Both the position numbers and the translations under genes were made by a program. A stretch of 64,000 nucleotides of DNA from Candidatus Paceibacter sp. GTDB lineage: Bacteria; Patescibacteriota; Patescibacteriia; S139-126. The notes beneath the pieces are model-generated. The model saw nothing but the letters and a program-made list of their open reading frames with translations, did no database searches and was not told where the DNA came from. The stretch spans positions 12,032 to 76,031 of the forward strand of contig DYGA01000002.1 in NCBI GenBank assembly GCA_020724865.1, in the 5' to 3' direction. Shown piece after piece: positions 9,355-33,490 of the stretch (positions are counted from its first letter, which is position 1; each line of letters opens with the position of its first letter).

Positions 9355-9376
9355 CTCGCTAGCTAGCGAGGTTTTT
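9355..9376 (+). terminator. Perfect 16-nt GC-rich palindrome (ctcgctagctagcgag) plus a T-run; terminator-like hairpin
   Basis: Read directly from the sequence. It sits immediately 5' of the truncated ABC ORF. Confidence 0.55.
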
Positions 9377-30270: not shown

Positions 30271-30291
30271 AATTATTAATTATTAATAACT

Positions 30292-30311
30292 CCTGCCTAC
30301 CGGTAGGCAGG
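30292..30311. repeat. Perfect 20-nt GC-rich palindrome cctgcctaccggtaggcagg
   Basis: Read directly. Sister of the palindrome at 32504-32523. Confidence 0.8.
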
Positions 30312-30589
30312 AATGAATTTTAAATTATTTAATTAATAAATTAAGTCATTGATTAGTAATTCGTCATTAGTAATTAGTAATTTATTTTTTTAATAGTTTG
30401 TCAAAAACGCCAGTTTATTTTACTATTAAATCCTGAAATCACCTTGAGTAGGGTACAAGTTTAGAATGATAATAAGATGATAATAATCCTAACTGTCATG
30501 CTGAACTTGTTTCAGCATCTAAAAATAGACCCTGAAACAAGTTCAGGGTGACAAGGGTGAATAAGTTCAGGGTGTCATAATTATATACT

Positions 30590-31213
30590 ATGCAAAAGTG
30601 GTTAGAAAAAATTAGACAAGCTATGGGCAAGCAACCCATGTTTTGGCGTTGGCTGGGAATTTTATTGATATTTTTTGGTTTAGTTATTATTTGGCGGGCA
30701 CAAATGCCAATTAGTAGTCCGACTGATTATGAAAATTATGGAGAACTTAATATTTTACCTTCAGGTGAGGAAATGGATTTAACTCCAGTGGATTTGTCTG
30801 GTATAGATCTGACTAGTAAGAATGGTAATTGGATTGTGATTCCTAAAATGGGAGTGGATAGCGCGATTTTTGAAGGAGGGGAAGAAATGCTCAATCAAGG
30901 TGTGTGGCATTTGCCCAGAACTTCAACACCAGATCAAGGTGGTAATACTGTCTTGTCAGCTCATCGTTGGTTATATAAACCGCCGGATCCCAGGACTTTT
31001 TGGAATATTGACAAAATAGAGGTTGGTGATGAAGTGTATGTTAAATGGCAAGATAAAGAATATACTTATCGGGTAATATCTACTGAAGTGGTGACGCCGG
31101 ATCGGGTGGATATTTTGCGTCCGACTAAAGAACCAATTTTAACTTTTTTTTCTTGCACGCCACTTTATTCAACTTCGCATCGGTTGGTAGTAAAAGCGGA
31201 ACTGGTTGAATAA
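30590..31213 (+). CDS. Sortase-family transpeptidase with an N-terminal TM anchor
   Basis: Catalytic triad context: LSAHR (His), TFFSCTP (the Cys of the TLxTC motif), and a C-terminal Arg (RLVVKAELV). Confidence 0.75.
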   Translation: MQKWLEKIRQAMGKQPMFWRWLGILLIFFGLVIIWRAQMPISSPTDYENYGELNILPSGEEMDLTPVDLSGIDLTSKNGNWIVIPKMGVDSAIFEGGEEMLNQGVWHLPRTSTPDQGGNTVLSAHRWLYKPPDPRTFWNIDKIEVGDEVYVKWQDKEYTYRVISTEVVTPDRVDILRPTKEPILTFFSCTPLYSTSHRLVVKAELVE

Positions 31214-31247
31214 AAAAAAATGTGAAATTAATTTCACATTTTTTTAA
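31212..31247. terminator. Bidirectional terminator (A-run, hairpin, T-run)
   Basis: aaaaaaaaatgtgaaattaatttcacattttttt. Confidence 0.65.
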
Positions 31248-31278
31248 TAAATTTTCTAATTTCTAGTAATTAAACTAA

Positions 31279-31767
31279 TTATTTTAACAGACTCAGGAAC
31301 ATCAAAAAGAAAAAGGCTTGCCAGATTAGTCCGTATTTGAGGGGAATGAGAAAATTTAATTTTCGTTCAAAAAAAGTATGTATGGTTTTGTGAATATTTT
31401 GAAATTTAGCTAGCCAGGGATAGTCTTTGTTGAATTTTCCGTTTAAAACAAAACTTAAGCCAGAAATCAGATCAGGCAAAATCGCTGCTCCTAGACCGAC
31501 AAAAAATAATCCGTAATGAGTAGGAGCAAACATAAGTAGGTAGTAAATAGAAAATAAAAATATTAAAAAACTGTCAATGGTAGCTACCCAAAAAAGTTTT
31601 CGGAATTGAACATTTTTGGGCTGAGTTTTGTCGGTTAGTTTTTCATCGCCATGTGGAATAAAATCAAGTACAAAGTGGGAAAAAAATGACATTAAAAAAA
31701 CGAGCATAGGATTGCCGGTTTGTTGTGATATGACAGTGGCAGCAGCAGTATGCACGATTAAGAACAT
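31279..31767 (-). CDS. Hypothetical membrane protein
   Basis: 162 aa, 4-5 hydrophobic helices. Confidence 0.45.
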   Translation of the reverse strand: MFLIVHTAAATVISQQTGNPMLVFLMSFFSHFVLDFIPHGDEKLTDKTQPKNVQFRKLFWVATIDSFLIFLFSIYYLLMFAPTHYGLFFVGLGAAILPDLISGLSFVLNGKFNKDYPWLAKFQNIHKTIHTFFERKLNFLIPLKYGLIWQAFFFLMFLSLLK

Positions 31768-31854
31768 GGGGAATAATTTATTAATTACTAATTTTTAATT
31801 GCTAATAACTAATTTAATTTTACAATTCTATATCCTAAATTCTAGATTCTACTC

Positions 31855-31931
31855 TGGTGACAGGGGGCGGAGTTGAACCGCCGACCTAGGGGTTATGATT
31901 CCCTCGCTCTAACCAACTGAGCTACCCTGCC
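31855..31931 (-). tRNA. tRNA with anticodon CAU (elongator Met, or Ile if lysidinylated)
   Basis: Manual fold: GGCAGGG acceptor, GCTC/GAGC D-stem, anticodon loop aTCATaa, T-loop TTCAACT, CCA end encoded. Confidence 0.7.
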
Positions 31932-31932
31932 T

Positions 31933-32008
31933 TGGTAGCGGGGGCTGGACTCGAACCAGCGACCTCCAGGTTATGGGCCTGGCGAGCTGCCAACTGCTCT
32001 ACCCCGCG
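31933..32008 (-). tRNA. tRNA-Met (CAU), initiator-like: 5' CGCGGGG...CCCCGCU-A-CCA, very similar to E. coli tRNA-fMet, with an unpaired 1:72 position (C1.U72) and C33
   Basis: Manual fold. 1-nt spacer to the neighbouring tRNA. Confidence 0.65.
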
Positions 32009-32148
32009 TCGATAAATACGCTTAAAGATTATATCTTATTTATCTAAATTTTTCAAGATATTTTTTAATAAACCTTAAAATATTACTTATTTCTTAATAC
32101 TTTATTCTGTTTTACATTAACAGAATTAATCAGGTTAATACAAAAGCA

Positions 32149-32235
32149 TGGTGCCGCGGGAGAGAATCGAACTCTCATGAGCTTGCGCTCACAGGTTTTT
32201 GAGACCTGCGTGTCTACCAATTCCACCACCGCGGC
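32149..32235 (-). tRNA. tRNA-Leu (CAA) with a long variable arm
   Basis: GCCGCGGTGGTGGAATTGGTAGACAC...anticodon loop CTCAAAA...long variable arm...TTCGATT T-loop...CCA. Confidence 0.8.
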
Positions 32236-32242
32236 GTATTTT

Positions 32243-32479
32243 CTATTGTATATTTTTTAAATATTCTTTACCAATTCCTGATTTTAAATATTTCTCTCTT
32301 TTCCGTGCTTGTAACCGTGTGTCATAGGTTTCGTAGATTATCAATTGAAATGGCTTATAAGGCTTTGTCGTTTTATTTAAACCAGTGTTATGTTGATGAA
32401 ACCTTCTTTTTAAATCATTAGTTAATCCTACATATATATAATTTTTGTTTACACTTTTTATGGCGTACACAAAATACAT
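32243..32479 (-). CDS. Stand-alone GIY-YIG nuclease-domain protein (78 aa)
   Basis: YFVYAIKS...YIYVGLTNDLKRRFHQHN... = GIY-YIG core (Y..Y.....YVG...N...R...H) and C-terminal basic helix (RKREKYLK). Confidence 0.75.
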   Translation of the reverse strand: MYFVYAIKSVNKNYIYVGLTNDLKRRFHQHNTGLNKTTKPYKPFQLIIYETYDTRLQARKREKYLKSGIGKEYLKNIQ

Positions 32480-32492
32480 ATTTTTATATTAA

Positions 32493-32538
32493 GTGTCTAC
32501 CAACCTGCCTGCCGGCAGGCAGGTTCCACCACCGCGGC
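32493..32538 (-). other. Duplicated 26-nt 5' segment of tRNA-Leu (acceptor/D-arm) interrupted inside the D-loop by the 20-nt palindrome cctgcctgccggcaggcagg (32504-32523). A decayed second unit lies at ~32584-32615.
   Basis: gtgtctaccaa[cctgcctgccggcaggcagg]ttccaccaccgcggc versus the genuine tRNA gtgtctaccaattccaccaccgcggc at 32210-32235. Confidence 0.7.
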
Positions 32539-32728
32539 ATTTTTATTTTTATTAAAGTAAGTATTAAGTAACCAGTTTGTCAGCAGGTAGGATTCACCAT
32601 TACCGCAAATTTTTATTGCGTATTTATAAAATTAATCAAAAATATTAAATTTGTCAACAAAATCTTTTTGATAAATAAACAAAATATTGTATAATAATAC
32701 TATCTGAATATCATCAGAAAATTATTTT

Positions 32729-33490
32729 ATGGGTAAGATTATAGCACTGGTCAATCAAAAAGGTGGCGTAGGTAAAACCACGACATCAGTAAACCTCGCT
32801 GCTTATTTAGCATTATTTGGTAAAAGAGTTTTGTTGGTTGATATTGATCCTCAAGGCAATGCTTCTTCGGGTTTGGGGATTGTTTTGCGAGAATTTGATG
32901 AACATATTTATCATGCTTTGGTGATACCGGAAAAATTTCCCAAGATTATTAGGAATACCAATATGGATAGTTTGCACGTGGCACCTGCAAACAGCAGCTT
33001 AGCTGGAGCTGCGGTGGAGTTGGTAAATTTTCCCCAACGGGAATATCGATTGCGACAGTTATTAGTTGAAGCTAAAGATAAATACGATTATATAATTATT
33101 GATAGTCCACCTTCACTTGGATTGTTGACCATCAATGGTTTAGTAGCGGCTGATCAAGTGCTGATTCCAGTTCAGGCAGAGTATTATGCTTTAGAAGGAT
33201 TAGGACAACTATTAAAGACTATAAATTTAGTCCAAGCACACTTGCATCCCGAGTTGCAGATTTTGGGAGCAGTTATTACTATGTATGATAGACGCAATCG
33301 TTTATCAGCAGCCGTAATGAATGAGTTGTATCAGTATTTCCCTAAGCGTATTTTTAAATCAGTTATACCACGGAGTGTGAGATTGGCAGAAGCACCATCA
33401 CATGGTATGCCAATTTTACTTTATGATAAAAATTCAACAGGTAGTCGGGCATATCAAGATTTAGCCCAAGAAATATTAAACATCACTTAA
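32729..33490 (+). CDS. parA: ParA/Soj chromosome-partitioning ATPase
   Basis: Deviant Walker A KGGVGKTT; ParA family throughout. Confidence 0.9.
   Translation: MGKIIALVNQKGGVGKTTTSVNLAAYLALFGKRVLLVDIDPQGNASSGLGIVLREFDEHIYHALVIPEKFPKIIRNTNMDSLHVAPANSSLAGAAVELVNFPQREYRLRQLLVEAKDKYDYIIIDSPPSLGLLTINGLVAADQVLIPVQAEYYALEGLGQLLKTINLVQAHLHPELQILGAVITMYDRRNRLSAAVMNELYQYFPKRIFKSVIPRSVRLAEAPSHGMPILLYDKNSTGSRAYQDLAQEILNIT

Follow-up and report, generated by a model that had tools for sequence, protein, structure and literature searches.

The 64,000-nucleotide (nt) stretch of a Candidatus Paceibacter sp. genome analyzed here (contig DYGA01000002.1, positions 12,032 to 76,031; hereafter the window) carries two copies of a GC-rich 20-nt palindrome, the second of which lies beside the gene for a 78-amino-acid (aa) GIY-YIG nuclease at a tRNA-Leu gene. 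We found that this palindrome, whose consensus 20-mer CCTGCCTGCCGGCAGGCAGG we call P, is a widespread repeat tightly linked to one nuclease family. The gene for the nuclease is mobile and inserts at tRNA genes, and the palindrome next to it in the window marks the displaced 5' end of the resident tRNA gene. We propose that P is a structured DNA site acted on by the nuclease, and that breaks at P beside tRNA homology would drive the spread of the element and give rise to its arrays and solo copies; we put the probability of this explanation at about one half. The parts of the window concerned are as follows.

30292-30311, no strand: palindrome copy 1, CCTGCCTACCGGTAGGCAGG, a solo copy and A8/T13 variant, within a perfect palindrome of 22 nt (30291-30312).
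32504-32523, no strand: palindrome copy 2, CCTGCCTGCCGGCAGGCAGG, the canonical 20-mer, within a perfect palindrome of 24 nt (32502-32525).
32493-32538, minus strand: displaced 5' piece of tRNA-Leu(CAA), with tRNA nt 1-15 at 32524-32538, nt 16-26 at 32493-32503 and copy 2 between them.
32243-32479, minus strand: gene for the 78-aa GIY-YIG protein, a catalytic domain alone, 13 nt beyond the displaced tRNA piece.
32149-32235, minus strand: intact tRNA-Leu(CAA), found by ARAGORN and Rfam, beginning 7 nt past the nuclease stop codon.
32561-32610, minus strand: decayed older unit, with a tRNA-like 5' piece (32592-32606), the palindrome remnant CCAGTTTGTCAGCAGGTAGG (32572-32591) and an "acttaata" junction.

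Read along the minus strand from the parA side, the locus consists of the decayed unit, the tRNA 5' piece with copy 2, the nuclease open reading frame (ORF), tRNA-Leu(CAA) and two tRNA-Met genes. The duplicated part of the tRNA is here the 5' end: the 26 tRNA-derived bases of the displaced piece are 100% identical to the intact tRNA-Leu(CAA), and copy 2 sits between nt 15 and 16, in the D-loop (GGAA^TTGG). An earlier note, made from the letters of the window, had described the two palindromes as perfect, as GC islands in AT-rich DNA, and one of them as lying inside a duplicated tRNA fragment. Both sequences are where the note placed them and stand out from a window of 34.3% GC, and copy 2 splits an exact 26-nt duplicate of the tRNA-Leu(CAA) 5' end. 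The note had also seen a half-site remnant at 32587. A remnant is indeed there, but it is more than a half-site: it belongs to the decayed whole unit, and its palindrome matches P at 14 of 20 bases. This older unit is absent in the sister species (locus L141), where the alignment has a 43-nt gap. No integrase was found in the window locus. Copies 1 and 2 are the only GC-rich hairpins with a 9-bp stem in the window; folded as single-stranded DNA, they reach -8.7 and -10.6 kcal/mol (z-scores -5.2 and -4.6), respectively. The pattern CCTGCC-N8-GGCAGG, with up to 2 mismatches, has 3 matches in the window vs 0.48 expected, and 1 of 100 shuffles reaches 3. An Rfam scan of the window gave three tRNAs only above threshold, with no family covering either palindrome.

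P is concentrated close to the nuclease gene. Our sample consisted of 80 loci of the closest homologues, taken from metagenomes, of which 78 are distinct; a 20-mer with up to 3 mismatches to P was counted as P-like, and a distance of at most 150 nt from the ORF as near. A P-like 20-mer is near the nuclease ORF in 63 of the 78 distinct loci, and the density of such 20-mers is 3.25 per kb near the ORF vs 0.017 per kb more than 400 nt away, a 190-fold enrichment. All resolvable loci of the closest homologues are at tRNA-Leu genes, with the anticodons caa (36), gag (17), cag (13), taa (8) and tag (1). The layout of the window, that is, a 5' tRNA piece with P, the nuclease gene and an intact tRNA, occurs in 52 of the 78 loci. 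A mirror layout, with the intact tRNA, the nuclease gene, and then P together with a 3' piece or a near-complete tRNA copy, occurs in 19. One or the other of these layouts is seen across many phyla. In the first layout, 35-87 nt separate P from the start codon downstream of it; in the second, P follows the stop codon at roughly 20-110 nt. Among loci centered on P, there are 6 cases with a GIY-YIG gene, and in 5 of these P and the gene are 39-161 nt apart. Homologues that are 40-53% identical show a matching design at tRNA-Arg, -Lys, -Val and -Met, and two cultured bacteria, Flavobacterium azooxidireducens and Ekhidna lutea, have the arrangement as well. The family of palindromes proposed in the earlier note is borne out by these loci, which link it to the GIY-YIG protein next door and to pieces of tRNA; far from being confined to the window, P has hundreds of copies, and its insertions are polymorphic in relatives.

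Where an insertion can be checked against an intact copy of the tRNA, P is an exact 20-nt insertion, with no tRNA base lost or duplicated. The insertion sites are the D-loop, the anticodon loop or the T-loop (inside or at the edge), and in two loci the start of the variable arm. P is always in the redundant tRNA copy and never in the working tRNA; the duplicated part, which may be 5' or 3', is 26 to about 85 nt long. Two P copies can occupy one fragment (e.g., L115 and L169), nested P-in-P and tandem copies exist, and one locus has five 108-nt repeats of a 3' piece with P plus terminator. The position of P partly tracks the phylogeny of the nuclease. P-bearing tRNA fragments are also found without a nuclease gene (L064 and L023). 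At one locus (L111:3711-4330), where there is no tRNA, an hsdS-like restriction specificity gene is broken by a canonical P, which causes a frameshift, and is broken again, 21 nt on, by a GIY-YIG gene.

The same region in relatives of the window's species is found in several states.

L277: empty parA/tRNA-Leu junction, with no nuclease gene, fragment or P.
L141 (sister species): occupied as in the window.
L279: a nuclease gene interrupted by stop codons (a pseudogene), flanked on one side by a decayed 5' piece whose P is truncated and on the other by a 3' remnant carrying P in its T-loop.
L276: three different GIY-YIG genes, each about 40% identical to that of the window, at tRNA-Met(i), tRNA-Met(e) and tRNA-Leu; the tRNA remnants there hold GC-rich palindromes of other types.

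In both L276 and L279, the sequence upstream of the outermost 5' piece is that found upstream of the intact tRNA in the empty L277. Therefore, this piece is the original 5' end of the resident gene, and everything from the palindrome onward was inserted. In L169, two remnants join as one resident tRNA split at the anticodon loop, with "cacga-P-ctcaaaatc" on both sides; the intact tRNA lying in between differs from it in anticodon stem and variable arm and so must have been brought in. Such empty, occupied, decayed and re-invaded states are as expected for a selfish mobile gene. Between the window and L141, copy 2 is identical at 20/20 bases, the fragment with P is identical at 45/46 positions, and the adjoining spacers are 56-83% identical. 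At third codon positions, the nuclease gene (32243-32479) is 79% identical vs 54% for ParA (32729-33490), which suggests that the element was exchanged after the two species split. The remnants of L276 (1660-5330) contain the palindromes TCCCGCGGNCGCGGGA and CCCTGAACCACNGAGGGTACAGGG, plus long tandem arrays of them.

The 78-aa protein matches Pfam PF01541 with an E-value of 1.2e-18 (67.6 bits vs a cut-off of 22.6), and the catalytic-type residues Y5, Y14, Y16, R26, H30 and E62 are invariant in 30 homologues. Its AlphaFold (AF2) model has a pLDDT (predicted local distance difference test) of 96. The best structural matches of the model are 1zg2 (UPF0213) and then the nuclease domain of Slx1 (6seh and 7cq4), with a query TM-score of about 0.7, a root-mean-square deviation of about 2.2 Å and an identity of about 26-28%; the I-TevI catalytic domain comes next. 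The protein is a catalytic domain only, without a DNA-binding module. Slx1 is a structure-specific nuclease that cuts branched and stem-loop DNA, and an Slx1-like fold without a DNA-binding domain, as modeled here, would fit a hairpin or cruciform substrate. There are more than 1,000 homologues; the best 120 are 62-87% identical, and those that are named belong to Bacteroidota, Patescibacteria (including Pacebacteria) and Ignavibacteria. The phage and plasmid collections contained no homologue.

P itself is widespread. A scan of one genome per species with the pattern CCTGCCTNCCGGNAGGCAGG gave at least 120 loci, in as many species, for P and its one-base variants, with unrelated flanks. They come from many phyla, including Patescibacteria, Bacteroidota, Omnitrophota, Planctomycetota, Saccharibacteria and proteobacterial lineages, and another 48 loci are from viral contigs. 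From the size of the collection, about 9 loci would be expected by chance. It is therefore hardly conceivable that P is a chance or simple-sequence by-product of (CCTG)n/(CAGG)n-like tracts: its arms are made of CCTG/CAGG tetramers and slippage could yield similar strings, but slippage does not account for at least 120 loci with unrelated flanks, for precise insertion relative to intact tRNAs or for clustering beside one protein family. We note that this chance figure, the 14/20 match of the remnant, and the figures of about 4 doubles and 1/57 given below are our own estimates or, for the match, our own count.

Is P selected for its structure? The earlier note had read the symmetric differences between copies 1 and 2 as compensatory, implying a hairpin or a dimeric protein site. 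P as a putative site of either kind is plausible, but the argument from compensation holds only in part. Among the matches listed (127 instances in 120 species), the center of P is G/C, the canonical perfect palindrome, in 79, changed on one side in 44, T/C in 3 and doubly changed to A/T, the form of copy 1, in 1. The one-sided, non-palindromic centers are found in both orientations (25 and 19). The double changes are not in excess, since about 4 would be expected if the two sites were independent and 1 is seen. Across 30 distinct variants, the pairing of the full 10-bp palindrome does not covary beyond shuffled controls (0.126 vs 0.126). In contrast, two shifted 6-bp pairings do: positions 1-6 with 11-16 (0.225 vs 0.142) and positions 5-10 with 15-20 (0.201 vs 0.130), neither score being reached in any of 500 shuffles. 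Variants such as CCTGTCTACCGACAGGTAGA follow the formula a-b-c-a'-b'; therefore, each DNA strand keeps a 6-bp hairpin even without the overall palindrome. These results are suggestive only, as they come from few independent events among related variants, but P variants may be under structural constraint as two shifted 6-bp hairpins.

What favors the argument is copy 1 itself. Copy 1 is intergenic, about 20 nt past the terminator of a 235-aa gene, and in the sister species (L280) a canonical P, interrupted at position 12/13 by 30 inserted nt, follows the terminator of the homologous gene. This makes copy 1 an old one, and the canonical center in the sister species indicates that both G8>A and C13>T arose in the lineage of the window. 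Two substitutions would fall on partner positions and be complementary by chance with a probability of about 1/57, and the symmetric changes thus lend modest support to selection on structure. However, template-switch correction of a quasi-palindrome gives symmetric changes without selection, and it would explain the double change of copy 1 just as well. The insert in the copy-1 orthologue (L280:3290-3345) is tcttcgaccccgaggctcagactcgaggag.

Most copies of P are solo. P sites are 81% intergenic vs 27% of random positions, and solo copies have no preference for gene ends or starts. T is avoided at position -1 (7% vs 27%), and 7-nt direct repeats flank 9% of the copies vs 0.6% of control positions. 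Once P is removed, a pairing of 6 bp or more between its flanks exists in 12% of copies vs 1.5% of controls; pre-existing hairpin loops are enriched as targets, but at 12% they are not the rule, and we rejected the idea that P always inserts into one. Solo copies (in L092, L101, L229, L237, L258 and others) are often within short 7-9-nt tandem motifs or between 7-nt direct repeats, and the right-hand flanking repeat often begins with T or TTCG.

Based on these findings, we suggest how P and the nuclease might work together. The nuclease would act on P as a hairpin or cruciform. Breaks at P next to tRNA homology would then drive recombination, through which the nuclease gene and a working tRNA or part of one would be copied into other tRNA genes. 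The same recombination would build tandem arrays and nested copies and would leave behind solo P such as copy 1. Since the displaced piece with P could not recombine back to a working tRNA, the persistence of the element might be helped as well. We count in favor of this scheme that P beside the active gene is kept at 20/20 bases in the sister species, while that of the older unit has decayed to 14/20. We further suggest, as a bolder and rather doubtful step, that a 20-nt hairpin and a 78-aa Slx1-like nuclease form a kind of mobile DNA not described before, one guided by structure. The hairpin would serve as address and as element end alike, with the nuclease acting on the hairpin or cruciform and not on a long sequence; tRNA genes across phyla would be invaded, the resident gene being split and a replacement supplied, and a hydrolase would bring about precise insertion without target duplication, distinct from the HUH, DDE, serine and tyrosine recombinases.

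Several observations weigh against the nuclease acting on P. About 95% of the genomic copies of P do not adjoin a GIY-YIG gene, and a more sensitive profile search for such genes near solo P gave no further cases; one must therefore assume that the nuclease acts in trans or that its gene was lost once insertion had taken place. To our knowledge, GIY-YIG enzymes hydrolyze DNA and strand transfer is not known for them, so the precise 20-nt insertion is not accounted for by our proposal. Only 12% of the copies are in an obvious pre-existing hairpin loop. Palindrome type and nuclease sequence do not go together in a simple way: canonical P accompanies the 41%-identical nuclease of L111, but nucleases just as distant, those of L276, are accompanied by other palindromes. 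The data do not support a strict match between nuclease lineage and type of palindrome. Finally, L222 keeps a 69-nt perfect repeat beyond P, and because it does, P cannot generally block recombinational loss.

How far, then, could P do without the nuclease? One possibility is that the nuclease does not act on P, which would instead be a passive plug, passed on with the element and maintained by selection on the element. It would destroy the nuclease target in the displaced tRNA piece and so confer immunity, shorten the repeat available for deletion and make recombinants that keep P lethal. The confinement of P to redundant copies fits this idea, as do the split of the 26-nt repeat in the window into 15 and 11 nt, the two plugs per fragment at L115 and L169, the partial agreement of P position with nuclease phylogeny, which is expected from inheritance, and the conservation of the fragment with P between sister species like a functional element. 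We nevertheless consider it unlikely, as a plug leaves the many solo copies, the nested and tandem copies, and the need for one particular 20-mer unexplained; moreover, if the tRNA gene were the target, the working tRNA beside the nuclease gene would stay cleavable. L222 and L171 also retain a near-perfect repeat of 69-70 nt beyond P, and a role of P solely in blocking recombinational deletion was rejected on account of such repeats of about 70 nt at some loci. That P is an RNA-level hairpin in the untranslated region of the nuclease mRNA (5' in the window, 3' in mirror loci), protecting or processing the transcript, or a host terminator or insulator, appears highly improbable to us. Its short distance from the start or stop codon would suit such a role, the G-T one-sided variant still pairs as G-U in RNA, and REP hairpins (see below) stabilize upstream mRNA. 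On the other hand, the one-sided variant occurs in both orientations, and half of these give A-C mismatches in RNA. Neither window copy has a T-run on its 3' side or is reported by the terminator scan, and copy 1 lies just past a conventional terminator. The indifference of solo P to gene ends and starts also argues against a role in transcripts, and nested insertions would be left unexplained.

The large share of solo P would be more natural if P were an independent miniature repeat resembling repetitive extragenic palindromic (REP) sequences or miniature inverted-repeat transposable elements. Another enzyme, for example a Y1 transposase of the IS200-like or REP-associated tyrosine transposase (RAYT) type, would move it with a preference for exposed single-stranded loops; P would be seen in dead tRNA copies because hits in live ones are lethal, and the GIY-YIG element would merely make the dead copies. 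The intergenic bias of P, its distance from GIY-YIG genes in about 95% of cases, the flanking 7-nt repeats, the avoidance of T at -1 and the tRNA fragments with P but no nuclease gene in L064 and L023 all point this way. In a Chitinophagaceae locus (L068:3671-4175), an IS200-like Y1_Tnp gene starts 25 nt after P. However, among the matches listed this is 1 of 120 loci in which Y1_Tnp adjoins P, and P is on one side of it only; on this count, P as a REP sequence with a RAYT was rejected. The Y1_Tnp gene of L030 is flanked by different palindromes, and there is no Y1_Tnp gene in the window or in the 80 nuclease loci. REP sequences are as a rule lineage-specific, whereas P, like the nuclease family, is near-identical across phyla. 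The 190-fold enrichment beside the nuclease gene and the tRNA-free hsdS case would also be unexpected of an independent repeat, and on balance we regard this explanation as distinctly unlikely.

The proposed system shares features with several known ones. Free-standing GIY-YIG homing endonuclease genes, such as those of the phage T4 Seg proteins (e.g., SegB in a tRNA gene cluster), for which I-TevI is the paradigm, likewise encode a GIY-YIG domain, lie in or next to a highly conserved gene, and are present or absent in close relatives with degenerate copies, in a cycle of invasion, decay and loss. This hallmark of presence/absence polymorphism with a degenerate copy is found here, in the empty L277, the occupied window and L141, and the pseudogene of L279. 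Unlike them, the gene in the window has no intron, is always accompanied by a displaced tRNA part and a 20-nt palindrome, and has no homologue in the phage or plasmid collections; its product has 78 aa and no DNA-binding domain, and no module for binding a long specific target was found in it. With REP sequences, their REPIN arrangements and RAYT genes, P shares its short length, GC-richness, mostly intergenic and dispersed distribution, tandem and nested copies, and proximity to a small single-domain nuclease gene. It differs in that the enzyme is a GIY-YIG hydrolase and not an HUH tyrosine transposase, in that P starts with CCTG without a 5' GTAG head, and in being near-identical across phyla and strongly tied to tRNA fragments. 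Slx1 and UPF0213 proteins (YhbQ/BH0048-type) are the best structural matches, and the activity of Slx1 would fit a hairpin substrate, but their identity to the window protein is low, the window protein has no Slx4 partner or RING domain, and its gene behaves as a mobile element and not as housekeeping repair. tRNA-targeting integrative elements also insert into a tRNA gene and keep its function through a duplicated flanking tRNA segment. Here, in contrast, there is no integrase, either the 5' or the 3' part is duplicated, the cargo is one 78-aa gene and the leftover copy is plugged by a palindrome. The mobile GC-rich palindromic clusters of fungal mitochondrial genomes (the GC clusters of yeast, the PstI palindromes of Neurospora and the double-hairpin elements) recall P as GC-rich hairpins scattered in AT-rich DNA that co-occur with GIY-YIG or LAGLIDADG endonuclease genes and tRNA genes. 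P differs in being bacterial and chromosomal, fixed at 20 nt, placed at defined positions of tRNA loops and linked to one nuclease family, and a relation in sequence is not known. We found no prior description of the P sequence or of GIY-YIG genes at bacterial tRNA-Leu genes in the searchable literature, which did not cover subscription literature.

If our proposal is correct, a single 78-aa nuclease and a single 20-nt hairpin would make up a selfish system of great compactness that is widespread in Patescibacteria, Bacteroidota and other phyla and remodels the loci of tRNA genes. Such a system would account for recurring oddities of metagenome-assembled genomes, namely tRNA pseudo-fragments, remnants of tRNAs in tandem and contig breaks at these loci, and would provide a candidate substrate for the stand-alone GIY-YIG proteins of the UPF0213/YhbQ-like kind, a large uncharacterized family. 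A new route to precise DNA insertion at structured sites may come to light as well. The cultured carriers, F. azooxidireducens and E. lutea, make experiments feasible.

Of additional note are some features around the palindromes and the locus. The earlier note had rightly set apart a third GC palindrome: at 9355-9370, the 16-nt perfect palindrome CTCGCTAGCTAGCGAG is preceded by an A-run and followed by a T-run; it has the look of a common bidirectional intrinsic terminator and is unrelated to the P family. Between the convergent genes for the sortase and the 162-aa protein, a 32-nt perfect AT-rich palindrome, AAAAAAATGTGAAATTAATTTCACATTTTTTT (31214-31245), probably serves both genes as a bidirectional terminator. 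The stretch upstream of the sortase gene (30499-30575) contains the inverted 11-mers GAACTTGTTTC and GAAACAAGTTC and two GTTCAGGGTG repeats, where Rfam gave a spurious sub-threshold microRNA match only; the CCCTGAA...TTCAGGG arms there resemble the other palindrome type that fills the tRNA remnants of L276. When all ORFs up to 1.5 kb from P were clustered, the only groups besides ParB and the GIY-YIG family were a few small ones with 2-3 loci each, and the ParB cluster probably reflects conserved gene order beside tRNA-Leu, as in the window. P as parS or another ParB site upstream of parA was rejected on the parS consensus and on the unrelated contexts of P. The last codons of the nuclease gene (32245-32274, minus strand) hold a promoter-like TTGGTA-18-TACAAT, ending about 9 nt before tRNA-Leu; by this consensus match only, the element may carry a promoter for tRNA-Leu. 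The block with the two tRNA-Met genes and the 162-aa gene (31279-32008) has one orientation to tRNA-Leu/parA in the window and L141 and the opposite one in the three more distant relatives L276, L277 and L279. Many independent assemblies of the window's species (L001-L020) end in or next to the tRNA/nuclease/palindrome region, which is consistent with breakage by repeats or hairpins.

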